In this document: positions 12,573 to 33,322 of the stretch, piece after piece
How the letters are laid out: every line of letters begins with the position of its first letter
How positions within the stretch are numbered: position 1 is the stretch's first letter
Assembly (NCBI GenBank): GCA_018434685.1
Contig: JAHDOV010000003.1
Span: 28,302 to 92,301, forward strand
From: Deltaproteobacteria bacterium
GTDB lineage: Bacteria; Desulfobacterota; Desulfomonilia; UBA1062
Direction of reading: 5' to 3'
Length of the DNA: 64,000 bases
Notes under the pieces: generated by a model
Databases searched by the model: none
What the model was told of the DNA's origin: nothing
What the model saw: the letters and a program-made list of their open reading frames with translations, nothing else
Program-made: the position numbers and the translations under genes

Positions 12573-13154
12573 ATGAAAAAATCATTCAGCAATGAACAGG
12601 GACAGGCCCTGGTAAGGCTGGCGCGGCATACCATCGAGAAACGACTGGGGCTGGGACCCCGGGAACCCGAGACTGTTTCCGGGCAGCTCGATGACGATAT
12701 CCTGAAGGAGAAGCACGGCGTTTTTGTCACGCTCAACAAGCACGGTGATCTGCGGGGATGCATCGGGTCTCTCGAGGCACGGGAATCCGTGCTGGAGGGG
12801 GTGAAGCACAATGCCCTCAATGCAGCGTTTCACGATCCCAGGTTCAGGCCGGTGGACCGCTCCGAAGTGGGTGCCCTGGAAATCGAAGTGAGTATCCTGA
12901 CCGAGCCGGAACCGCTGGAGTACCGTGACCACAAGGATCTCCTGAAAAAACTGCGTCCCGGCCTCGACGGAGTGATTATCAGATCCGGGTATGCCGGTGC
13001 CACGTTCTTGCCCCAGGTCTGGGAGCAGTTGCCGGACGAGGAGGACTTCCTGGCCCACCTCTGCGCCAAGGCAGGGCTCCCGGCAGACGCATGGAAAACG
13101 AAGAAGCTCGAGGTCTCGACCTACCAGGTTCAATGCTTTGAAGAACCCGGATGA
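12573..13154 (+). CDS. AMMECR1-domain protein
   Basis: The motif HGVFVTLNKHGDLRGCIGSL matches the AMMECR1 family core. Confidence 0.85.
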   Translation: MKKSFSNEQGQALVRLARHTIEKRLGLGPREPETVSGQLDDDILKEKHGVFVTLNKHGDLRGCIGSLEARESVLEGVKHNALNAAFHDPRFRPVDRSEVGALEIEVSILTEPEPLEYRDHKDLLKKLRPGLDGVIIRSGYAGATFLPQVWEQLPDEEDFLAHLCAKAGLPADAWKTKKLEVSTYQVQCFEEPG

Positions 13155-13281
13155 AAAGGCGATACTGCGGGTCGTCATCGCCACCGGAAGAGCCTTCATC
13201 GTCCCCCGGCCTTATACGATCCGTGAGCCTTGGGATCTTCATAGCCGGCTCATCTATGGGGTTCTATGCCATGACATAGTT

Positions 13282-13469
13282 ATGTTACTTTCTTTGCTTG
13301 CACAAGAGAAAGTAACCAAAGAAATGCACCCCACGAAGCCGCCCTTTCGGGTGCGTTCGCTCACTCGGGAAAAATCCGTTCGCAATTAAACTCGCTCCAT
13401 TTCATTCCGCTCAGACAAAATTGCTCATTTTCCGGATTTTTCCCTCCCTCGCTCACCGGCTTCGAGGGG
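13282..13469 (+). repeat. Left terminal inverted repeat (~190 bp, hairpin-rich) of cassette
   Basis: It begins ATGTTACTTTCTTT...AGAAAGTAAC (a 10-bp-stem terminal hairpin). It contains GGGAAAAATCCG-N55-CGGATTTTTCCC and ends at ...CGGCTTCGAGGGG. The reverse-complement copy at 16300-16491 is ~80% identical. Confidence 0.85.
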
Positions 13470-13637
13470 ACCCATCCCGGGTGCTGAACCGCGACTCAAC
13501 AGGAAAATATTGGAATCTGCGTGCTCTTTGCCATAAAGAAGACAACCAACCTCTTATCAACGAACTGCACATATCCATTGGAGATCTTCAAAATAATCCG
13601 TCTTGGGAAATTGAATAGTTATCGCAGTTATATTTAC

Positions 13638-14405
13638 TTAGAAGTTTGAGATGCAAGAGGAGCGCATGGACATGACACATAGTTTTTCTCGCTTAGGGTA
13701 AGGTTGATTGTGAGCTAACATTAATTTTCTATATTTCTTTACCGTTCTAGGCGTAGCGGCAATCATTATGTATCTGTGTTTTGGGGTTAAAGGTATAAAT
13801 TTTAACTTTGGGTCATATTCACGGAGCTTTGATAAATCCCTTGTTCCAAATTTTTTCCTAACTTTCCATCCGGACATTTTCTTCCCAAGAATATAATAAT
13901 TACCCTGTCCTTTGGGATCCGTAAGACCAGTATAAATAGCATTTGATGCCTGATAAATAGTGCCAATCTCATAAAATTGAGTATCAGCATAAGCGATAAT
14001 TATTGATGATCCTAACTTATTATACATTGCCCTATTGGCTCGAGCAATTAAATGAGTTGCAGTGCATATAGGAGCATTGAAAGAACAGCCACCACGACAA
14101 AGTTGGATTATGTTACATCTGAGTTCCTTGGCTAACTGACTTATCCATCCACGATTTTTAGAAAAACATGTTGTTCCATATGAAACTACACCAAGTAATT
14201 TATCATTATGTTTCAATCCCCAATGCCATACCCCTAAACCGACATCCCCTAAATGCTCATATATCCCCATGAATTCTTGAGCCTGATTTCTGGGAATATT
14301 AACAAGAGTAGTATGACTAAGCTCAGATGAAGATAACATTATATATCTTATGTAATTTTTGGTTCTTTTCCTAGAATTAAGCATCCCAATAAAACTGTAG
14401 CCCAT
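13638..14405 (-). CDS. Hypothetical protein (255 aa; unknown function; cassette cargo gene 2)
   Basis: Long ORF in AT-rich DNA, 3' to and overlapping (or abutting, if the start is the internal Met at 14339) the 344-aa ORF. Basic C-terminus. No motif I can assign; weak Rx5H near the C-terminus. Confidence 0.5.
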   Translation of the reverse strand: MGYSFIGMLNSRKRTKNYIRYIMLSSSELSHTTLVNIPRNQAQEFMGIYEHLGDVGLGVWHWGLKHNDKLLGVVSYGTTCFSKNRGWISQLAKELRCNIIQLCRGGCSFNAPICTATHLIARANRAMYNKLGSSIIIAYADTQFYEIGTIYQASNAIYTGLTDPKGQGNYYILGKKMSGWKVRKKFGTRDLSKLREYDPKLKFIPLTPKHRYIMIAATPRTVKKYRKLMLAHNQPYPKREKLCVMSMRSSCISNF

Positions 14406-15382
14406 TTTAACAGTTCAAATAGTGATGACAATGGAAAGCTTGCTAAATCTTGCAATACAATTAAGACGGCAAGGATGAGTGCTATTATAAAAGTTTTAGA
14501 AATTAACATTTGAGATGATATTTTCAATGGATATTCCAATGAATATAGTATGTTACTCTCTTGATATACAAATACTTCGATAAAAGACCGTATATCCGAT
14601 ATCTTAAATGAGCTTTTGGGCGTAAATAAATTTTTAACGCTGTTTGTTTTAGCACCCAATACTATTCTTCCTGAGCTATGGGGAAATAACGGATTGTTAA
14701 ACTTGATTAAAATTGATTTATCAACACTGCCTTTATCAGGGTCATAATATGTAATATTAAAATCATATGTATTATCAGATTCTAAAGTAATAACATTTGA
14801 TTGCACTGGTAATAGTTCTTTCCCCTTAATTGTTTCATCTTTTAAGGATATTTTCAGTAGCGGCAAATGATCTTCTGATAATTTCTTTGTCTTTGATAAA
14901 TTTTCTACAACTATAAACCAATAACTACTGTCGAAAGATAGCTCATCGGAATATTCTTTGCCTACTTGCATATAATAACCATCGTTAATGTTACAAGGAT
15001 CTTGCCCTACTAGCTCTGGTATGCCTTTAACCGATTTCTTAAGTTGATAAGTGAACTCCTCATAATTTTCAGTCTGGCAATAATCTCCAAATGAGCATTC
15101 TACATGTAGGCGATTAGCGTTAACTTCAGAGCTTAAAACTTTTGCTTTTCTGATGGGGTAATATTTATAAGAGCCTTCATTGAATCTATCTACATAAATT
15201 ATTAAACAATCCATTCCTGATAAATCTTTTCCAACCAATTCAGAGGGGACATTTTGACCTATAGTGTAGCGAAACGTTGTAGTATAATAATTTGGAAAAG
15301 ATAATATTTTAGAAATATTATTCTTGTAAAGAGGTCTTAAAGCTGAATTAAAAACATACAGTATTTCGTTCTCCATAACCAC
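14348..15382 (-). CDS. Hypothetical protein with ~270-aa soluble N-terminal domain and two C-terminal TM helices (cassette cargo gene 1)
   Basis: 344-aa ORF with an AT-rich promoter region upstream (15383-15720). The C-terminal hydrophobic segments are FIIALILAVLIVL and WATVLLGCLILG. No recognisable catalytic motif. Confidence 0.55.
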   Translation of the reverse strand: MVMENEILYVFNSALRPLYKNNISKILSFPNYYTTTFRYTIGQNVPSELVGKDLSGMDCLIIYVDRFNEGSYKYYPIRKAKVLSSEVNANRLHVECSFGDYCQTENYEEFTYQLKKSVKGIPELVGQDPCNINDGYYMQVGKEYSDELSFDSSYWFIVVENLSKTKKLSEDHLPLLKISLKDETIKGKELLPVQSNVITLESDNTYDFNITYYDPDKGSVDKSILIKFNNPLFPHSSGRIVLGAKTNSVKNLFTPKSSFKISDIRSFIEVFVYQESNILYSLEYPLKISSQMLISKTFIIALILAVLIVLQDLASFPLSSLFELLKWATVLLGCLILGKEPKIT

Positions 15383-15723
15383 CTACAAAAAATGATTTCA
15401 TTAGAAATATAATTTTATGATATTAATTGTATAACAATAATTTGAAATGATATCTATAATTATTGAATATCTAGTGAAATATCACTCTCTTTATGATTTA
15501 ATGCTTATTCCAAGTCTATCAAAATGATAGAGCACGTGCCATACTGTGTAATCAGATTTTGATTGAGATTTTGGATACATATCACAAGGAAATCTTTCAC
15601 CCATAATATGAGTCCTTTTGATCCTATCTCCATTTCGTTCCGACTTTACTCAATTGCTCTTGATTTGGTGATACATCAGATTAAATAATGAATAATGTAA
15701 TCCGATTTTTAAGGTGAAAAAAC

Positions 15724-16113
15724 ATGAAAGAGATCGAAATAGAACTAGTTATATTTCTATTAATTATTTTATGTTCATGCACAACAATTAAAACATCACA
15801 AGAAATAATACCAAAAAACAATTTAATATATTCTGCACCATACGATAAAGTGTATAACTGCTCAATTAATGCCCTCATGGCTCTTGGATGGCAAATAACG
15901 CATTCAAATAAGGATGAGGGCTTGATCCAAGCTAAGGCACCTATGTCCTTGTGGACTTGGGGAGATCTAATTACAGTACATATTATTAAGGAATTCCCTG
16001 ATAAGGTAAGAGTAGATGTGACATCAGGCTCACCACAACAGTTTGACTGGGGTAAAAACAAGAAGAATATAGAAGCATTTTACGAAGAGTTAAAAAAGCA
16101 ATTAGAAGATTAA
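15724..16113 (+). CDS. Small secreted/lipoprotein-like hypothetical protein (cassette cargo gene 3)
   Basis: N-terminal hydrophobic helix ending ...LIILCSC (a lipobox-like Cys), then a 105-aa hydrophilic domain. Divergent from the two-gene operon. Confidence 0.45.
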   Translation: MKEIEIELVIFLLIILCSCTTIKTSQEIIPKNNLIYSAPYDKVYNCSINALMALGWQITHSNKDEGLIQAKAPMSLWTWGDLITVHIIKEFPDKVRVDVTSGSPQQFDWGKNKKNIEAFYEELKKQLED

Positions 16114-24640: not shown

Positions 24641-24672
24641 GCTCGTGATCGATAGTGTGCCCCGGCCGGGGA

Positions 24673-25590
24673 TTACAGATAATCCAGCCAGTCTATGTGC
24701 TTTTTGTTGTTGCCCTTTACCACGGCAAAGAACGCATCCTGAATGGCCTTGGTGACCGGTCCGGGTTTGCCCTCGCCGATAGTCCTGTCGTCCAGCTCTC
24801 TGATCGGGGTAATTTCTGCTGCCGTTCCGGTAAAGAAGGCCTCGTCGGCAATATAGAGGGAGTCGCGCGAAAAGTGCTGTTCGCGCACTTCATAGCCCAT
24901 TTCGGACAGCAGGGTGATGACCGAGGCCCTGGTGATGCCGGGCAGCACGCTGGTCAGGGGCGGGGTGAAGACGACATTGTCTTTGACGAAAAAGATATTC
25001 TCTCCGCTGCCTTCTGCCACGTTGCCCTGGGGATCGAGCATGAGTGCCTCGTCGTAACCGACCCGGGTGACCTCCAGCTTCGAGAGGATGGAATTCACAT
25101 AATTACCGCTCACCTTCGCCTTGGTGAGCATGATGTTCGGATGGTGCCTGATGAACGAAGAGGTCTTTACCCGGATTCCCTTGCTGAGGCCGTCATCGCC
25201 GAGATATGCCCCCCATTCCCAGCAGATGATGGATACCCGGATGGGGTTTTTGCCCGGATTGACCCCCATGACCCCGTCCCCGATGAAGACGATCGGGCGA
25301 ATGTAGCACTCTTTCAGCGCGTTTGCCTTGATGGTCTGTTTGGTTGCCTCAATGATCTCATCGGTGGTGTAGGGGATGTTCATCAGGTAGATCTTTGCGG
25401 AGTCAAAGAGCCGTCTCGTGTGATCCTGGTGCCTGAATATTGCGGAGCGACCGTCGTCGCACTTGTAACATCTGACACCTTCAAAGGCAGCGACACCGTA
25501 ATGAAGGCTGTGCGTCAATATATGAACCTGAGCATCATCCCAATCGACAAGTTTTCCGTCAAGCCAGATCTTTTTCAATTTCATTACCAT
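24673..25590 (-). CDS. ilvE: Branched-chain-amino-acid aminotransferase
   Basis: Fold-type IV PLP enzyme with the typical IlvE N-terminus ([25 protein letters not shown]) and EGSGENIF...TPP. Confidence 0.92.
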
Positions 25591-25682
25591 TGCTCATTTA
25601 CCTCACAAATATATCGTTATCTTTACCAGTCGGGGCATTATTGATCATTCTCCTCATCAGGTCAATATAAAGTTAGGTCGGG

Positions 25683-25757: not shown

Positions 25758-28700
25758 TTGATGTGTGATGATGTAATTGCGTGCCCACGCTGTGGAGTGG
25801 TTGGCGGGCGTTCGGACAGATTCTGCAGACACTGCGGCGTATCCCTGGATCACGGGGGACACGTCCGTGAATATCGCCACGTAACCGCCCTGTTCTCCGA
25901 CCTGTGTGAATATACCCCCCTGACCGAGGAACTCGAACCCGAAGAACTCAAGGATATCATGGACACCCTCTTTGCGAAGTCTGCCCACATCATTGCCGCA
26001 TACGGCGGGAGTGTGGAAAAGTTTGTGGGAGACGGGGTTGTCGCCCTGTTCGGGCTGGACGATATGCACGAGCACCATGCCGTTTCGGCAATTCACGCCG
26101 CACGGGAGATTCACGGGTTTGCCCGCGAGATTGCCGGTGAGTCGTATCCCTGCCTCGGCAGGGGAATCTCCATGCATACCGGCATCAATACCGGCCTGGT
26201 GCTCGTAGATCAGCAGTGGGATGACCGCAATGCCCACGGCGCCTTGGGCACGCCGATCAACATCGCATCCAGGCTTTCAGCCCTGGCAGGCCCGGACGAT
26301 ATACTCATCGGGGAGACGGTCATGACCGATGCGGCGCGTCATTTCACCATCGAAGGCATGGGGAAAAAGCGTCTCAAGGGTGTCCGGGAACCGATGAGGG
26401 TGTTCCGGGTCCTTTCCGCCAGAGAGGTGCCGGTAGGCATCCACCGGCAAGGCGGCATCACCTCGGGCCTGATCGGCCGAAAGAAAGAGCTCGCAGCCCT
26501 TGTGCATGCCTTCGATAACCTGCTGGAGGGGAAGGGTTCGGCGGTGTGTATACACGGGGACCCGGGCGTGGGGAAAAGCAGGCTGATACACGAGTTCAGG
26601 AAACAGGTGCCTAAGCGGACCAGATGGATACATGCCCAGTGCCTGGACCATACGAAAGACACCCCCTACTGTCCGATAACCGGCCTCGCCAGGGCCCTCC
26701 TGGGGATTCGTGAGGGAAGGGACAGCAGGGAAGAGGTGGAAGAGAAGATCAGGGCGTTTTCTTCGGATATGCGGCACAGCGCCTCCCTGATATCTCTTTG
26801 CAACGCGCAGGCCTCTGCCATGCAGGTGATGCCCGGTGAATGGAAGGCCGGGATCTGCGATGCATTCTCATGGCTGATCCGCTCTGCCGGCACTGTCTCG
26901 CCTCTTGTTGTGTGCATAGAGGATATTCACTGGGCGGACCGCTCTACCCTTGACCTGCTGGAATATCTTTTCCAGGACAGGGAGGCAGCAGGCTCGTGTC
27001 TGTTCCTCATCAGCACACGGGCCGTCTCAGAGCTGATCCCGGTTAGTGCGCACATTGGGTTGAACGATCTGGACCGGACAGAAGTTGCAGCAATGCTCGG
27101 GCACATGCTCGAGGGAAATCGTATCCCGGAGGCGGCTGTAACGTATCTGTACCGGGAAACAGGGGGGAATCCGTTCTACATCGAGGAGGTGGTCAACTAT
27201 CTTTTCGAGAAGGGCATTTCCCTGTCGCAGTGTGCTCACGGGGAGATCCCGGGCGGTGTTCCCTCGACCATTCAGGGGCTCATCGCGGCTCGTCTGCTGA
27301 ACCTCGGTGCGGAACTCAAGACGCTGCTGCAGGAGGCATCGGTAATCGGCAAGGTGTTTCCGAAGACCCTCCTGGCGGCGGTAAGTACCCGGCAGACGCA
27401 GTTCGATGCCGGCCTCTGGGGTCTTCAAGAGGCCGGGTTCATCCATGAGTCCGAATCCGGTGAATACCGCTTCCGGCATGCGCTGACCCAGGAAGTGGCC
27501 TATCAGACCCAGCTGAAGCGCCACCGGATGATGATGCACAAGAAGGTGGGCCGGGCACTGGAGCGGATGGGGCGGGCTCCGGGAGATATCTGCGACATGC
27601 TCGCCTACCATTTCGATTGTGCCGGTGAAAAAGACCTCGCGATTCAGTACAGTATCATGGCCGCCCGGAAATATCAGGCCGAGGGAGCATGGGTGGAAGC
27701 TGCCGCCCACTATAGGATCGCCGAGAAATGGCTGCTCGTGACCGCTGAGGCGGACCGTGACCGGGAAGGCCTGGCAGCAGTATGGGAAGGGATCTGGTCA
27801 TGCGCCCGTATCCTCGACCCGAACCTGGCCGTTCGGGCACTGGAATCCCTCCGAGGGCATCATGCCCGCTCTGGCGCGAGCCGGGGCGAGGCCTTTGTGC
27901 TGATCCGCCTCATCAACCTCTATTCTCAAAAGGGTCTGTTCAAAGAAGCTCTCGATACCTTTGAGCAGGCCCTTGAGAGTGCAGGGGACGATGGGATCCT
28001 CCGCAGTGCTGCGCAGACCGCTGTTGCCTACACCTACACCTATCTCGGCAGGCCGGATGTTTCTCTGGGGTATCTGAACGAGGCGAGGCCGGCCCTGGGG
28101 ACGGCGGACAGATTTCTCCTTGCCGTCAACCACCTCACGACCCTTACCGCCTATGTCTGGAAGGGCGCCGTACAGGAAGCCATGGCATGGTACTCGCAGA
28201 CGAAGGACCTCTGCGGGGACTACCTGGATCTCGAACTCATGGCGGAGATCTACCTGGGATACCTTCATTACCTCAGGGGCGATTTCCCTCGGGCGCGGCA
28301 GGTATTCGAGCTGGTGCACGCCCAGGAGAGGAAACTCGGCAGTCTTGCGGGGGGATTATCGTACCTGAGAATCCAGAGCTCCATATACTTCAATGCCCGC
28401 TATACCGGAGAGCTCGACAGGGCCGGTGAAGAGCTCAGGATGTTCGAGGCGCTCGATAACGGGATGAAGGGCTTCCCGGCGCTGATAAGCCTCTATCGCG
28501 CATGGATCGCGGTGGAGAAGGGACAGTGCGAACAGGCACGGGATCTGCTCATGATGGCGCTGCCGGTTTTCGAAGAGGGGATTGCGAACAGGGTTCCCTA
28601 TGCACTCAACGTCCTTGCCGAGGCACTGGAGACCATGGGGGACACCGAGGGGGCCGAACGGGTTGCGCTCAAGGGCATTGCCTGGAATGAACTCAACGGC

Positions 28701-28997
28701 AATCAGGATCAGCTTGTCTGGGCACTGAGGATCATGGGACGGCTCTATCTTCGCCAGGAGATGTTCGATGAGACCCGTGACGCCTTGAAGAGGGCCTCGT
28801 TTCTGGCCAGGGCGTGTTCCATGCGGCCGCACACTGCATGGACCCTGGAGTCCTGGGGAGATTATTTTCGGTCGACGGGTCAGGCAAAACGGGCGGATGC
28901 CTGTTATCACAGGGCTGTGGCCCTGTGGAGAGGGATGGCTAATCCGTATCAGGCAGGCAAACTGTCTTCACGGATTATCAACACGGGGCATTCCTGA
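25758..28997 (+). CDS. Multidomain signalling protein: N-terminal Zn-ribbon, class III adenylyl/guanylyl cyclase domain, STAND/AAA+ P-loop NTPase, C-terminal TPR repeats
   Basis: CPRCG...CRHCG zinc ribbon. Cyclase core ALFSDLCEYT...KFVGDGVVALFG. Walker A GDPGVGKSRL. Long helical TPR-like C-terminus. Confidence 0.85.
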   Translation: MMCDDVIACPRCGVVGGRSDRFCRHCGVSLDHGGHVREYRHVTALFSDLCEYTPLTEELEPEELKDIMDTLFAKSAHIIAAYGGSVEKFVGDGVVALFGLDDMHEHHAVSAIHAAREIHGFAREIAGESYPCLGRGISMHTGINTGLVLVDQQWDDRNAHGALGTPINIASRLSALAGPDDILIGETVMTDAARHFTIEGMGKKRLKGVREPMRVFRVLSAREVPVGIHRQGGITSGLIGRKKELAALVHAFDNLLEGKGSAVCIHGDPGVGKSRLIHEFRKQVPKRTRWIHAQCLDHTKDTPYCPITGLARALLGIREGRDSREEVEEKIRAFSSDMRHSASLISLCNAQASAMQVMPGEWKAGICDAFSWLIRSAGTVSPLVVCIEDIHWADRSTLDLLEYLFQDREAAGSCLFLISTRAVSELIPVSAHIGLNDLDRTEVAAMLGHMLEGNRIPEAAVTYLYRETGGNPFYIEEVVNYLFEKGISLSQCAHGEIPGGVPSTIQGLIAARLLNLGAELKTLLQEASVIGKVFPKTLLAAVSTRQTQFDAGLWGLQEAGFIHESESGEYRFRHALTQEVAYQTQLKRHRMMMHKKVGRALERMGRAPGDICDMLAYHFDCAGEKDLAIQYSIMAARKYQAEGAWVEAAAHYRIAEKWLLVTAEADRDREGLAAVWEGIWSCARILDPNLAVRALESLRGHHARSGASRGEAFVLIRLINLYSQKGLFKEALDTFEQALESAGDDGILRSAAQTAVAYTYTYLGRPDVSLGYLNEARPALGTADRFLLAVNHLTTLTAYVWKGAVQEAMAWYSQTKDLCGDYLDLELMAEIYLGYLHYLRGDFPRARQVFELVHAQERKLGSLAGGLSYLRIQSSIYFNARYTGELDRAGEELRMFEALDNGMKGFPALISLYRAWIAVEKGQCEQARDLLMMALPVFEEGIANRVPYALNVLAEALETMGDTEGAERVALKGIAWNELNGNQDQLVWALRIMGRLYLRQEMFDETRDALKRASFLARACSMRPHTAWTLESWGDYFRSTGQAKRADACYHRAVALWRGMANPYQAGKLSSRIINTGHS

Positions 28998-29113
28998 GTG
29001 CAGGACGCCCCCCGCGGTGCCTCAGAGGCACCAGGATGAGGCTTCGCCCGGCCGACAGGGGCAACCCGAATAGGTATTGCACAGAAGCCGGAGGTGTATT
29101 ATTTAAAAGGGCA

Positions 29114-30121
29114 ATGCCCCAGCTTGTACTGTACCAGAAATATTCCAGGAGCGAGGTGCTCGAGATATTCTCACCCGGGACACCCTTCATCCCGCAGAGG
29201 GGTGCATGGGGGCTCCATACGATCGTGGGGCTCCATGGCCGGCCGGGTGACTGGGTCTTTTTCACGACCCAGGAGCATACAGAGGGTTCATCCGAAGAAG
29301 GGATAACGAAAGACGGGGTCTTTACCTGGAAATCAAAGGCCGGCCAGGCCCTGAAAGACCCGCAGATACGGCAGTTCATCACCCATGACGAACTGCGCAA
29401 TACGATCTATCTCTTCTGCCGGCAGAAAAAGCAGGGGAGATACACCTACCTGGGCAGGCTGAAATATCTGCGGCATGACGCGTCGCGCGAGAAGCCGGTG
29501 TATATCCAGTGGCAGATCCTTGACTGGAATATATCCCAGAAAGAGTTGAACCGGTCCGGTCTGGTCCTGCAGGACGAGAGGCAGCCGGGAGACCATGAAC
29601 GCCTCCCCTTGAGAAGCATGCTCCGGGAGACACCCCCCCCGCTGAATCTGCTTGAGGACGGTATCACAGGCGATGCCTTTCGACGCACCAGGACACCGGA
29701 TTTTTCCGCTGAAGAGGTACTGGATACAGAGCTCGTTATTGCCGGAGAAAAGATCGTGATAGCCCATGAAAAGAGAGCGCTCATCCAGGCGGGCAGGGCC
29801 GATCTCGCCCACAAGGTGCGGCATGTCGCGGCAATAGAGGGTGAGCACGCCGGCTATGATATCGAGTCGTATACCGCAGAGGGGGCGGTGAAGTATATCG
29901 AGGTGAAGACTACCAGGGGAGGTGCCGAAGCCCCGTTCTACCTGAGAACCCACGAGCTGGAATTTGCCAGACAGCATGCCGGCGAGTACTACCTCTACCG
30001 GGTGTACGAGTATGACGAGGCCTTCAATGCCGGGAAGTTATACATCGTCACCGGAGATATCGAGGAGATTTTCCGCCTCACCCCGACAGGATACCGGGCT
30101 ACCCGCTCCAGACCTTCCTGA
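29114..30121 (+). CDS. DUF3883 (NOV C-terminal, PD-(D/E)xK nuclease-like) domain protein with uncharacterised N-terminal beta-rich domain
   Basis: The C-terminus GYDIESY...VKYIEVKTT...FYLRTHELEF...YYLYRVYEY matches the DUF3883 core with a D...E-x-K arrangement. Start set at the Met after the upstream gene's stop; the ORF track begins at 29036. Confidence 0.7.
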   Translation: MPQLVLYQKYSRSEVLEIFSPGTPFIPQRGAWGLHTIVGLHGRPGDWVFFTTQEHTEGSSEEGITKDGVFTWKSKAGQALKDPQIRQFITHDELRNTIYLFCRQKKQGRYTYLGRLKYLRHDASREKPVYIQWQILDWNISQKELNRSGLVLQDERQPGDHERLPLRSMLRETPPPLNLLEDGITGDAFRRTRTPDFSAEEVLDTELVIAGEKIVIAHEKRALIQAGRADLAHKVRHVAAIEGEHAGYDIESYTAEGAVKYIEVKTTRGGAEAPFYLRTHELEFARQHAGEYYLYRVYEYDEAFNAGKLYIVTGDIEEIFRLTPTGYRATRSRPS

Positions 30122-30379
30122 GATCTTTTCTGATAACCAACCACTTCAGTCTAAAGGCTTTTTTGATTATCGATTCACCAGTCCATTTATTCGTTAATAT
30201 TTTTCCCCATCCAGGCGATACGGTCACTATACGGGCCCGGCATGAGCCCGGGCGTGTTCTTTGACAATCGAAGAAAGAGAGCCATGTGTATTCTTTGAAC
30301 CCAGAGAATAGACATGGGTAAAAGAGTGACGGGTGCATAAGGGCCGACCAGGGGCGGATAATCAACCGCCCTGCCTTTA

Positions 30380-30450
30380 GCCAAACCACAGGCGACTGTG
30401 GGACGGAAAGCCACGGGTCTGCTTTTGCAGACAGCCGGGCCGCCTCCTCA
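30380..30450 (+). promoter_or_regulatory. c-di-GMP-I (GEMM) riboswitch-type aptamer, tandem copy 1
   Basis: GCCAAACC-ACAG-GCGA-CTGT-GGGACGGAAAGCCACGGG, then the hairpin GTCTGC-TTTT-GCAGAC. It aligns with the Vc2 aptamer core GGCAAACC-[GNRA hairpin]-GGGACGCAAAGCC.CGG. Confidence 0.65.
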
Positions 30451-30518
30451 GCCAAACCAGGGGCAACTCTGGGACGGAAAGTCACGGGTCCGCTTCAGGG
30501 CGGACGGCCGGGCTGCCT
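30451..30518 (+). promoter_or_regulatory. c-di-GMP-I (GEMM) riboswitch-type aptamer, tandem copy 2
   Basis: GCCAAACC-AGGG-GCAA-CTCT-GGGACGGAAAGTCACGGG, then GTCCGC-TTCAGG-GCGGAC. Confidence 0.65.
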
Positions 30519-30548
30519 GAGAAGGTTTCAACAGCAGCAAGGATTCAC

Positions 30549-30618
30549 GCCAAACCAGGGGTAACCCTGGGACGGAAAGCCACGGGTCCGCTTCAGCGCG
30601 GACAGCCGGGTTGCCTGG
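30549..30618 (+). promoter_or_regulatory. c-di-GMP-I (GEMM) riboswitch-type aptamer, tandem copy 3 (27 nt upstream of start codon region)
   Basis: GCCAAACC-AGGG-GTAA-CCCT-GGGACGGAAAGCCACGGG, then GTCCGC-TTCAGC-GCGGAC. The GNRA loops vary between copies (GCGA/GCAA/GTAA) while the stems co-vary. Confidence 0.65.
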
Positions 30619-30644
30619 AGAAACTGATCAGAAAGGAGTACCAG

Positions 30645-31139
30645 ATGAAAAGAAAAAGCCTATTGGCTGTGTTGTGCATAATCGGACTGCTCATGCTCCC
30701 TCATGCAAGTTTTGCAAAGCTCAGCACCCTGACTGAGGATCAGCTCGGAGAGGTTGTCGGTCAGGCCGGGATAGCCTTCAGCGTGACGAATCTCGGCATC
30801 AACATGGTCATGGATACGCTCAGCTACGGGGATCTCGACGGGCTGGGCGGCGATACACAGGCAGGCTTCCTGAGCCTGTGTGATGTTACCTACCGCGCAA
30901 GCATGAATTTCCCGACCCCGATGACCCTGGACGTCGTCACGATGGCGACCCGGTTGGGCACCGAGGTCTCGAGCCTCAACTTCCATCTGAACGACATGTC
31001 CATCGATATCGATGAATTCACTATCGGTGCCATCCGGATCGGGCCCGAGCCGGGAGCGGGACCGAGCCTGGGCAGTTTCGGCATCTACGACATGCACATG
31101 GATATTACCGGAGATGTACAGATATCAACAAGACCTTGA
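30645..31139 (+). CDS. Small secreted hypothetical protein (riboswitch-controlled)
   Basis: Signal peptide MKRKSLLAVLCIIGLLMLPHASFA. Conserved-looking LTEDQLGEVVGQAG block. 164 aa, Gly/Asp-rich. Confidence 0.55.
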   Translation: MKRKSLLAVLCIIGLLMLPHASFAKLSTLTEDQLGEVVGQAGIAFSVTNLGINMVMDTLSYGDLDGLGGDTQAGFLSLCDVTYRASMNFPTPMTLDVVTMATRLGTEVSSLNFHLNDMSIDIDEFTIGAIRIGPEPGAGPSLGSFGIYDMHMDITGDVQISTRP

Positions 31140-31203: not shown

Positions 31204-32004
31204 TTACTGACGGATGAGCCTGCAGGGCCTGGTCTCTTCGGGGGTGATCTCCACGTTTGCACGGACAGGATTGATGTCGATGCCCCCCCTGCGGGTGAAC
31301 AGGCAGGATACCGTGAGTCGTTGTGGGCGGCAGCGCTCCATGATATGGCGGTAGATCTGTTCACAGCACTGCTCGCCGAAGCCTTCGTGGTCCCGGTAGG
31401 AACAGATGTAACTCAGCAGAGCCTCATCCCGTATCTTTCTGCCTGCATAGTCTATGATCACGCTGCCCCAGTCGGGCTGATGGGTGATGGGACAGAAGGT
31501 GCGCAGCACATGGGAATAGAGCACCTCACGGGCCTGGTGCGTCCCGGTCGCGAGCAGCATGGGGTCGGGGAGTGCCGAGTGGATCTCGATATCCAGGGAA
31601 TCGATGCAGGTGCCTTCAGGAGAGGTGTGCCAGGGTATGGATGCCATCGCGGTCTCGTCGTAGACCACGACCGACAGCCAGGGGGTCTCCAAAATGCGTT
31701 CGAGATCGGCCATCAGGAGCCGGGAAAGCTCGCCTAGCGAACCGAACCTCCTGTTCGACAGTCCGTGCAGGTAGAGCTTTAAGGACTTCGATTCGACGAT
31801 ATTCCTGCTCTGCCGGGGATAGATCAGCTCGAGGATCCCGATACACGGTTTGCCTCTGGCAGTGAGCCATGCCAGCTCATACGAGCGCCACAGGTCGAAG
31901 CCGAACATGGGCAGGGCAGGCTCCGGCCGGGCAATGGGGAACAGGATGGAAGGGTCGTACCTGCTGGGAGACGGGGTCTGTTTTCCGAGAGGGATGTCAC
32001 TCAT
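31204..32004 (-). CDS. queF: NADPH-dependent 7-cyano-7-deazaguanine reductase (two-domain YqcD type)
   Basis: QueF motif E(S)KSLKLYL and the catalytic Cys region; ~270 aa bimodular type. Confidence 0.88.
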   Translation of the reverse strand: MSDIPLGKQTPSPSRYDPSILFPIARPEPALPMFGFDLWRSYELAWLTARGKPCIGILELIYPRQSRNIVESKSLKLYLHGLSNRRFGSLGELSRLLMADLERILETPWLSVVVYDETAMASIPWHTSPEGTCIDSLDIEIHSALPDPMLLATGTHQAREVLYSHVLRTFCPITHQPDWGSVIIDYAGRKIRDEALLSYICSYRDHEGFGEQCCEQIYRHIMERCRPQRLTVSCLFTRRGGIDINPVRANVEITPEETRPCRLIRQ

Positions 32005-32663
32005 GTCATATACTCCGTAGGGTCAAGTCCCCGGTCATGGTCCAGGGCAGCCTTTCTTTCGAGGCAGGTGGCACACCTGCCGCAGTGAAGATCCAGCCCC
32101 TTGTAGCAGGACCAGGTCGTGGAAAAGTCGAATCCCAGGTCCCTGCCGATCAGGGCGATGTCTTTTTTGCCGAGAGAACCGAAGGGGGCCTCGATGGTTA
32201 CCCCCGTGAACGTCCCTTCGCCGGCCGCCTTGGACATGGCCTGAGTAAATCCGGTCGTGCAGTCGGGATAGATGAGGTGGTCACCGCCGTGGGATGCGAT
32301 GAGCACGGTCTTGATCCCGTGATTTTCCGCATAGCCTGCGGCGATGGAGAGCATGATGCCGTTTCTGAAGGGAACGACGGTAGAGGAGATATTGTCCAGT
32401 TCGTAGGGGCCCTCGGGAATGTCCCCCCCGGAGAGCAGCAGAGAAGAGGAAAAGAGGGTATTGATAAAGGGCAGATCGATCCGGGTAAAGGCGGCCTCGT
32501 AGTGTGAGGCAAGGATCTGTGCCATGGAAAACTCTTTTTCCTGGTGCTTGGAGCCATAGTCGAAATACAGGCCGTGAATCGTGTCGAACCGGGCTCGAGC
32601 CCAGGCGAGTAGCACGCCCGAGTCCATGCCCCCGGATAACAGAATGACCGCATCGTTCATCAT
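32001..32663 (-). CDS. queC: 7-cyano-7-deazaguanine synthase
   Basis: PP-loop SGGMDS and the C-terminal Zn-binding CGRCATC. Confidence 0.92.
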   Translation of the reverse strand: MMNDAVILLSGGMDSGVLLAWARARFDTIHGLYFDYGSKHQEKEFSMAQILASHYEAAFTRIDLPFINTLFSSSLLLSGGDIPEGPYELDNISSTVVPFRNGIMLSIAAGYAENHGIKTVLIASHGGDHLIYPDCTTGFTQAMSKAAGEGTFTGVTIEAPFGSLGKKDIALIGRDLGFDFSTTWSCYKGLDLHCGRCATCLERKAALDHDRGLDPTEYMT

Positions 32664-33322
32664 ACACCTCGTCTGGAATCAAAGGTCAGGACATGGAGCC
32701 TGGGTGTCATTCGATACCCGTGATCCCTGCAGAAGCAGAAGAGCGGTTCCATGTGGCGCAACTGTTCCTCCCGGGTCGTTCCCAGGGGCATGACATAGAC
32801 CCGCTCTTTCGGAAGGGCATAAAGCCCGATGAAGCCTTCCATGGCCTCGAGGGAACCGGGGTCGTGTGCCACGAATTTATAGTAATCGGCCCTGCCGCGG
32901 TTGGCCGGGTCGAATCTCCAGGTGCCGTCGATACATTTGGGGCTGCAGACTATCAGTGCGTCGGGCATCAGGGGGAAGGGCACCTTTCCGCTCGTCTCGT
33001 ACTGGATTCGATACCCGCGCAGCACGAGTGAGGCGTGAAGATCCGCCAGGCCGTGGTCCCACTGCAGGAACGGCTCACCGCCGGTGACGACCACCTGCCT
33101 GCCCGGATACCCTTCCAGGGCATCGAGGATGTCTCGGGGCGACATCCGGGTGGATTCCTCCAGGGCGTAGGGGGTGTCGCACCAGGGGCAGTACGGCTCG
33201 ACACAGCCGCCCAGGCGGAGGAAGGTAGCCGGAATACCGAGCCAGGGACCTTCTCCCTGCAGGGAGTGGAAGATCTCCGTTACGTTCAGGGTGTTCTCTT
33301 TAAGAGGGGTACTGTCTTTCAT
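32660..33322 (-). CDS. queE: 7-carboxy-7-deazaguanine synthase (radical SAM)
   Basis: Cluster-binding motif GCVEPYCPWCDTPYA (CxxxCxxC variant) and QueE length. Confidence 0.88.
   Translation of the reverse strand: MKDSTPLKENTLNVTEIFHSLQGEGPWLGIPATFLRLGGCVEPYCPWCDTPYALEESTRMSPRDILDALEGYPGRQVVVTGGEPFLQWDHGLADLHASLVLRGYRIQYETSGKVPFPLMPDALIVCSPKCIDGTWRFDPANRGRADYYKFVAHDPGSLEAMEGFIGLYALPKERVYVMPLGTTREEQLRHMEPLFCFCRDHGYRMTPRLHVLTFDSRRGV

Follow-up and report, generated by a model that had tools for sequence, protein, structure and literature searches.

A 64,000 nt stretch of DNA from Deltaproteobacteria bacterium (assembly GCA_018434685.1, contig JAHDOV010000003.1, positions 28,302 to 92,301 of the forward strand), referred to here as the window, contains two adjacent genes on the same strand: gene A, which encodes a large protein with class III cyclase, STAND ATPase and TPR domains, and gene B, which encodes a 335 aa protein. 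Gene B probably encodes a Type IV modification-dependent restriction nuclease that stands alone and belongs to the McaZI group (DUF3427-DUF3883). Within this family of anti-phage nucleases, which has been described before and recognises modified cytosines, gene B is a fairly ordinary, moderately divergent member. Gene A is an unrelated neighbour, not a functional partner of gene B. A preliminary description of the window had presented gene B as a protein with a novel N-terminal domain; the annotation is corrected here to that of a candidate DUF3427-DUF3883 (McaZI-type) Type IV restriction enzyme, and the tempting hypothesis of a 'cyclase-STAND plus nuclease' defence system is removed. The practical value of these conclusions is modest.

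Domain composition of gene B

Both open reading frames (ORFs) exist as previously described, although the products are 1078 aa for gene A when translated from its ATG (given before as 1079 aa) and 335 aa for gene B (given as 336 aa). The start of gene B at 29114 is favoured over an upstream ATG at 29036, on the basis that around 120 homologues of approximately 335 aa begin at the equivalent position. Only two Pfam families match the protein: NOV_C/DUF3883 (PF13020) at residues 211-302 (E = 7.1e-18, above the gathering cut-off) and DUF3427 (PF11907) at residues 68-133 (36.7 bits against a gathering cut-off of 27.7; E = 3.6e-9). It possesses no helicase, PUA/EVE or further domain, and its length lies within the approximately 320-340 aa characteristic of the McaZI group. 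The first of these matches bears out the earlier identification of a C-terminal DUF3883/NOV-C domain of the PD-(D/E)xK type, and the motifs on which that identification drew can be located at residues 247-252 (GYDIES), 262-265 (IEVK) and 292-300 (YYLYRVYEY), with WG at 32-33 and YTYLGR at 110-115. The second match means that the N-terminal domain is neither novel nor unassigned, and the architecture has already been described and tested (PMC6765204).

The predicted structure agrees with this division of the protein. An AlphaFold2 model (pLDDT 89.3, pTM 0.83) returned the target-recognition domain (TRD) of SauUSI as the first Foldseek match, followed by AspBHI, the SRA domains of SUVH5 and ScoMcrA, and AbaSI; UHRF1 and LpnPI are further top structural matches of the N-terminal domain, while the C-terminal domain matches structures with PD-(D/E)xK folds. 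These modelled similarities to SRA/PUA-like folds point to a reader of modified bases, as had been suggested for this beta-rich region. Searching the PDB with the single gene B sequence yielded no matches, and a profile built from an alignment of 40 homologues found just one, the C-terminal TRD of SauUSI (7clg, residues 803-923; E = 8.8e-5). Between the two domains, the alignment columns are variable and gapped and the model is poorly supported, with pLDDT of 59-66 in the linker, below 70 at residues 151-170 or thereabouts and below 50 at residues 159-165. Gene B is therefore predicted to consist of an SRA-fold reader, a disordered linker and a PD-(D/E)xK nuclease domain (Table 1).

Relationship to characterised enzymes

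Proteins in which DUF3427 is fused to DUF3883 in the absence of a helicase form the 'McaZI group' of Lutz et al. 2019 (NAR 47:9761; PMC6765204), for which 439 representatives were counted in UniProt and which REBASE labels as 'McrB2-4' (McrB) variants (PMC6765204). The experimentally studied members are McaZI (338 aa; WP_064610770), BwiMMI (336 aa; WP_000732259) and EfaL9I (323 aa; WP_010818586). These bind DNA containing 5-methylcytosine (5mC) or 5-hydroxymethylcytosine (5hmC) tightly, attenuate T4gt while hardly affecting T4 or lambda, and show toxicity or mild toxicity in Dcm+ Escherichia coli; in vitro, cleavage was weak for McaZI, in the presence of Mn2+, and otherwise undetectable (PMC6765204). 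Members of the group are found in three gene contexts, including that of a 'stand-alone restriction gene' and adjacency to a DUF2075 NTPase, and it has been speculated that an NTPase partner is perhaps needed by McaZI-type enzymes (PMC6765204).

Gene B has the same two domains as these enzymes in the same order, lacks a helicase or other additional domain, is of similar length (335 aa, compared to 323-338 aa) and retains the PD-(D/E)xK triad; its stand-alone position is one of the three known contexts. The placement of gene B in the McaZI group rests on domain architecture, size and catalytic triad, with the tested enzymes compared by description. Gene B differs from them in having a predicted pocket loop that is remodelled, in occupying a vertically inherited housekeeping neighbourhood, and in having no adjacent GATC C5-methyltransferase or DUF2075 NTPase. 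A motif scan found no convincing C5- or N6-methyltransferase gene in the window, although a stretch of 64 kb is a poor guide to the genome as a whole.

Other nucleases are less similar. SauUSI, an ATP-dependent Type IV enzyme from Staphylococcus aureus (PDB 7clg), combines a PLD nuclease with an SF2 translocase ATPase, both of which are missing from gene B, which instead has a PD-(D/E)xK domain; only the TRD can be aligned. MspJI, AspBHI and LpnPI (Type IIM/IV) likewise comprise an N-terminal SRA-like reader followed by a C-terminal PD-(D/E)xK domain, but membership of their family is undetectable in the sequence of gene B, the nuclease of which is of the NOV_C/DUF3883 subfamily. This nuclease domain is, according to PADLOC, common to gene B, the PADLOC candidate PDC-S36 (1.3e-43), PD-T4-1 (5e-14) and Tiamat TmtA (3e-12), whereas the N-terminal parts of PDC-S36, PD-T4-1 and TmtA are domains other than that of gene B; in the case of PDC-S36, profile positions 118-278 of 280 align to residues 167-330, which falls short of a full-length match.

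DUF3883-only proteins with a different, shorter N-terminus (approximately 277-283 aa, resembling PDC-S36) were also seen, at loci L029-L085. The DUF3883 domain alone matches 1,138 plasmid records, which as a set are predominantly conjugative and derive in the main from Enterobacteriaceae or Acinetobacter, and DUF3883-only proteins are common on the chromosomes of Alphaproteobacteria too.

The structural study of SauUSI found that DUF3427 has an SRA fold, and predicted that a flipped 5mC stacks on W868 and hydrogen-bonds to D858 while the loop formed by residues 848-854 closes over the base, in a SauUSI-DNA complex that was modelled and not solved (PMC7913695). When the sequences are aligned, W868 and D858 appear to correspond to W72 and E62 of gene B. 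From the characterised relatives we infer the ligand, the cleavage activity and the anti-phage role of gene B. The SRA-fold DUF3427 domain would bind duplex DNA and flip a modified cytosine (for the tested members, 5mC or 5hmC) into its pocket, where the base would stack on W72 and hydrogen-bond to the acidic E62; the PD-(D/E)xK domain (D249/E263/K265) might then cut or nick the DNA nearby, or the protein might clamp the modified DNA tightly, with the outcome that phages or incoming DNA carrying the modification would be blocked.

A number of observations weigh against this assignment. Even across the family, 'nuclease' is a weakly established description, because the tested McaZI-group members show little or no cleavage in vitro (PMC6765204). 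Several otherwise conserved residues at the predicted pocket are replaced in the clade to which the window belongs, such that specificity for 5mC or 5hmC may not hold. Gene B is vertically maintained in a housekeeping neighbourhood with no defence island, which is atypical of defence genes, though represented in Lutz et al. (PMC6765204). The nearest named relatives, found by tblastn against plasmids, are Bacillus/Priestia plasmid proteins with just 39-40% identity over 97-98% of the length; the accessions of the three tested enzymes were not among the proteins recovered. Finally, the gap between gene A and gene B contains neither a predicted terminator nor a recognisable sigma-70 promoter, meaning that gene B may be co-transcribed with gene A.

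Conservation and distribution of gene B

A database search identified 521 homologues of gene B at E<=1e-3. Among the 120 listed of these, which are mostly around 335 aa long, PF13020 is present in every one and PF11907 in all but one, and the hosts include Deltaproteobacteria, Methylotenera, Advenella, Halorhodospira and Thermosipho. Identity to relatives in reference genomes does not exceed 47%, and a search of a phage collection produced 6 partial matches, none of them full-length. In the alignment of 40 homologues, the predicted catalytic residues D249, E263 and K265 are invariant, so that the triad is not lost on alignment, which the preliminary description had named as a means of refuting its proposal; E212 is kept in at least 90%. 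The invariant positions of the N-terminal part are W32, G33, W72, Q78, H91, R103, Y110, H121, D122, W133 and W138, with E62 near-invariant, and the gene B of the window has every family-invariant residue. Comparisons with the orthologues at loci L002 and L004 gave dN/dS of 0.09-0.16 in both domains, with synonymous sites saturated. Gene B is thus under purifying selection, with its catalytic triad intact.

Strong constraint and stable retention could also be expected if gene B encoded a nuclease or DNA-binding protein domesticated for housekeeping, for example in repair or in reading out host methylation, and had no role in defence. The locus is neither mobile nor defensive in character, with no mobility genes or flanking repeats other than short chance repeats around gene B, and the tested members of the family bind tightly and cleave poorly (PMC6765204). 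Yet close relatives of the host lack gene B, which is consequently dispensable, and tested members do restrict phage (PMC6765204). The family is, moreover, patchily distributed across phyla and frequently lies beside integrases, insertion sequence elements, Dnd/Dpt, GmrSD and CRISPR genes, and PLD and Cap4 nucleases. For instance, at 23 loci from other phyla that carry full-length homologues (L006-L028), the scattered neighbours include Cap4 nuclease, ResIII, SLFN/DUF2075 helicase, GmrSD, MrcB_N, CRISPR DevR and integrase genes, and two more loci outside the clade adjoin AAA_15/21, SNase, DUF3987, PLD/NgoFVII-like and GmrSD genes. These surroundings fit the expectation that relatives of gene B are often found among defence or mobile genes, and a housekeeping role is accordingly considered very improbable relative to that of a Type IV restriction enzyme.

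Some variation in length was evident within the family. Several longer members (P0013, P0017, P0024, P0078, L020, L021 and L027; 424-535 aa) have approximately 90-190 aa added N-terminal to DUF3427; this extension had no Pfam matches when scanned, while some of these proteins carry a precomputed PF26345 assignment, and it constitutes an uncharacterised third domain in part of the family. In Geodermatophilus dictyosporus (L016, 10001-11026), the gene B homologue is broken into ORFs of 171 aa and 147 aa; similarly, the gene A orthologue at locus L001 (4562-7785), from a metagenome-assembled genome, is broken into ORFs of 574 aa and 496 aa. Both splits may represent pseudogenes or assembly errors.

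A remodelled putative pocket loop

The five-member clade that includes the window differs from the 35 other aligned proteins at 19 positions, each of them 85-100% conserved in those proteins, with the change shared by all or nearly all of the five. These differences are mostly in the reader domain: G36T, deletion of an 'FG' dipeptide, Q55H, H58G, F60S, L70F, Q73K and Q75K (WQSQ to WKSK), L102C, T104Q and F131I. By hidden Markov model (HMM) alignment, several appear to fall in the stretch corresponding to the 848-854 loop and Y856 of SauUSI, and the replaced positions surround this loop together with Y856 and W868, the predicted contacts of the flipped base.

The clade could thus retain a McaZI-type fold with a rebuilt pocket loop that reads another modification, such as a different cytosine or purine adduct or a 7-deazaguanine-type base. 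That the reader domain is still under purifying selection is consistent with a ligand of this kind. However, W72 and E62, aligned to the stacking tryptophan and to D858 of SauUSI, are both kept; the residue mapping comes from a weak profile alignment (E around 1e-4) and from the modelled SauUSI-DNA complex; and the nearness of queF, queC and queE reflects a conserved core synteny that also exists in the absence of gene B. A changed modification is therefore regarded as unlikely. A more elaborate version, in which the subclade (the window, P0001, P0002, P0004, P0006 and P0010) has retooled the SRA-like pocket through a 2 aa deletion and changes at around 10 near-invariant N-terminal positions, reads a modification other than 5mC or 5hmC, and has become vertically fixed downstream of a STAND NTPase-cyclase that might serve as the missing NTPase partner, is more doubtful still. 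That the remodelled putative loop may signify a shifted specificity is speculative, and it is the sole aspect of gene B with the potential for novelty: were it true, the enzyme could serve as a reagent for epigenetic mapping. SRA-type modification-dependent restriction enzymes such as MspJI, AbaSI and PvuRts1I are already in use for this purpose.

Gene A is not a partner of gene B

The domains earlier attributed to gene A were recovered by Pfam: Guanylate_cyc at residues 36-215 (8.5e-16; 58.5 bits, cut-off 21.9), AAA_16 at residues 237-415 (1.3e-25) and a TPR array at approximately residues 632-1062, to the end of which the TPR_12/TPR_MalT matches extend, in addition to a weak Zn-ribbon match at residues 6-27 with two CxxC motifs. 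The ATG start at 25761 is backed by a 100%-identical database protein of 1078 aa. Inspection of motifs located Walker A at residues 266-273, Walker B at around 385-389, and the cyclase residues D47, K87, D91, N167 and R171 (the metal-binding aspartate pair, the substrate lysine and the transition-state asparagine and arginine). The second substrate-specifying position, seven residues before the catalytic asparagine, appears on inspection to be Gly160 and not aspartate, and this glycine leaves the nucleotide specificity of the large cyclase-STAND-TPR family uncertain.

More than 3,463 relatives of gene A exist at E<=1e-30, and it is an ordinary, vertically inherited member of a huge Zn-ribbon/class III cyclase/AAA_16/TPR signalling family. 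Mycobacterium tuberculosis Rv0386, Rv1358 and Rv2488c are built along similar lines, in that a STAND ATPase of the AAA_16/MalT type and helical repeats come after a class III cyclase. The TOMM kinase/cyclase fusion family (TIGR03903) shares this arrangement as well, but gene A scored 281.5 bits where the cut-off of that model is 705.75, aligning only to profile positions 283-934; gene A differs from both groups in carrying a Zn-ribbon at its N-terminus and a tail of TPRs, and in having no LuxR helix-turn-helix and no kinase.

The proximity of the two genes suggests a two-gene defence system in which a STAND/TPR sensor, gene A, detects infection and signals to, or activates directly, the nuclease, gene B, through a cyclic nucleotide or its NTPase activity, on the pattern of McaZI with a DUF2075 NTPase, of Pycsar or of Avs. 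The genes are 116 nt apart on the same strand, and a scan of 28800-30700 detected terminator-like sites solely within gene A or in the leader of the DUF6160 gene that follows gene B, and no sigma-70-like promoters; co-transcription is possible, if uninformative. The NTPase partner speculated upon by Lutz et al. (PMC6765204) would give such a pairing a precedent. Furthermore, gene A is directly upstream of gene B at all four loci where the latter is 65-67% identical to that of the window (L001-L004). At these loci, however, synteny extends to the genes on either side of the pair (DUF1425, LpoB, PEMT, aminotransferase and DUF6160, plus queF, Dus and Ddl at the three long loci), and the adjacency of the pair hence reflects shared ancestry and adds no information.

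At other loci, one gene occurs without the other. Two orthologues of gene A with 45-47% identity (L086 and L087) are found in the same order of PEMT, aminotransferase, gene A, DUF6160 and queF-C-E but without gene B, with gene A separated from DUF6160 by about 550 nt. Since the synteny is otherwise the same, gene B represents a single-gene indel of approximately 1.2 kb (Table 1), after which the DNA alignment with these loci picks up again at the conserved promoter and leader of DUF6160. Gene B would have been gained, or lost elsewhere, between a vertically inherited gene A and a riboswitch-controlled DUF6160 gene. Conversely, phmmer detected no gene A homologue within 10 kb of the 23 full-length gene B homologues in other phyla (L006-L028), an orthologue of gene A was near none of the 25 full-length loci outside the clade, and Pfam revealed no recurrent partner family among 129 nearest neighbour proteins of L006-L028. 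The preliminary description had proposed that a pair not conserved together would refute its suggestion; the pair is kept in the immediate clade only.

A cyclase gene is also near a DUF3883 gene at two further loci. Locus L090 has a Guanylate_cyc-NB-ARC-TPR gene 2.1 kb from its gene B homologue, but two opposite-strand genes intervene, the cyclase protein is too divergent to be detected as a homologue of gene A, and its proximity is treated as chance because such proteins are so abundant. A DUF3883-only protein at L069 adjoins a cyclase-domain gene. With a gene A family numbering in the thousands, chance adjacency is to be expected.

Neither do the proteins resemble components of known signalling-based defence systems. 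Pfam and PADLOC identified no cyclic-nucleotide-binding, CARF or SAVED domain in gene B. The PADLOC matches of gene A are PycC models (1e-14 to 1e-4), which cover the generic class III cyclase fold, and a marginal match to SngB (E = 0.008). Pycsar was consequently rejected as an identity for the locus. Avs/AVAST was rejected for gene A, despite the earlier likening of this protein to Avs sensors: no Avs/AVAST or other STAND defence model in PADLOC matched it, and it is kept in the same flanking block in every relative examined. The synteny largely refutes a two-gene system, which is judged highly improbable, and the stand-alone restriction enzyme is preferred as the interpretation of gene B.

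Other features of the window

Coordinates of genes A and B and their parts are given in Table 1.

Table 1. Positions in the window of gene A, gene B and associated features
Feature	Position	Strand	Description
Gene A	25758 (TTG)/25761 (ATG)-28997	+	1078 aa from ATG; Zn-ribbon, class III cyclase, AAA_16 STAND ATPase, TPR
Indel segment	28998 to ~30190	+	~1.2 kb, gene B and short flanks; in the window/L001-L004 clade, not in L086/L087 (DNA alignment)
Gene B	29114-30121	+	335 aa + stop; DUF3427-DUF3883, candidate McaZI-group Type IV modification-dependent restriction nuclease
Gene B residues 1-150	29114-29563	+	SRA-fold DUF3427 domain, putative flipped-base reader
Gene B residues 51-76	29264-29341	+	Clade-specific stretch (TT--QEHTEGSS...TWKSKA); aligns to SauUSI 848-854 loop and residues after the stacking Trp
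Gene B E62	29297-29299	+	Aligned to SauUSI D858
Gene B W72	29327-29329	+	Aligned to SauUSI W868
Gene B residues 151-205	29564-29728	+	Linker, poorly conserved
Gene B residues 206-335	29729-30118	+	DUF3883/NOV_C PD-(D/E)xK nuclease domain
Gene B D249	29858-29860	+	Predicted catalytic residue
Gene B E263	29900-29902	+	Predicted catalytic residue
Gene B K265	29906-29908	+	Predicted catalytic residue

Downstream of gene B, three tandem cyclic di-GMP-I-type riboswitch aptamers (30371-30448, 30450-30516 and 30540-30619, + strand) precede the DUF6160 gene (30645-31139). Two of the three pass the gathering score of RF01051 (65.6 and 54.6 bits), while the best match of all three is to RF03167, 'c-di-GMP-I-GGC', with 58, 56 and 49 bits, just below its cut-off of 59. 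This triple array is kept in five related loci, including those without gene B, in which it is directly 3' of the cyclase-STAND gene. The aptamers are preceded by a conserved non-coding block at approximately 30254-30330 (+ strand), GTTCTTTGACAAT...CATGTGTATTCTTTGA..CCAGAGAATAGACATGGGTAAAAGAGT, which is near-invariant in five loci and probably represents the DUF6160 promoter/operator. This block includes an inverted repeat, CATGTGTATTCT / AGAATAGACATG, as well as a TTGACA-like element.

Approximately 1 kb downstream of gene B, on the minus strand, is a cluster of queF, queC and a radical-SAM (queE-like) gene (31204-33322) for synthesis of the 7-deazaguanine/queuosine precursor. A link between this cluster and gene B was rejected, as it lies in the conserved flanking block and is present at L086 and L087.

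A low-GC island is found at around 13000-16000, with a GC content of 0.32 at 14001-16000 as compared to approximately 0.58 elsewhere. It harbours a protein of the Mom family (the phage Mu DNA-modification family; Pfam 2.5e-16), for example at 13638-14405 on the minus strand, and neighbouring ORFs have no Pfam match; the island is likely to be a horizontally acquired element.

Lastly, a 329 aa ORF on the plus strand (24655-25644) with no Pfam matches lies opposite a 305 aa class IV aminotransferase on the minus strand (24673-25590). Synteny indicates that the plus-strand ORF is probably spurious and the aminotransferase the real gene.

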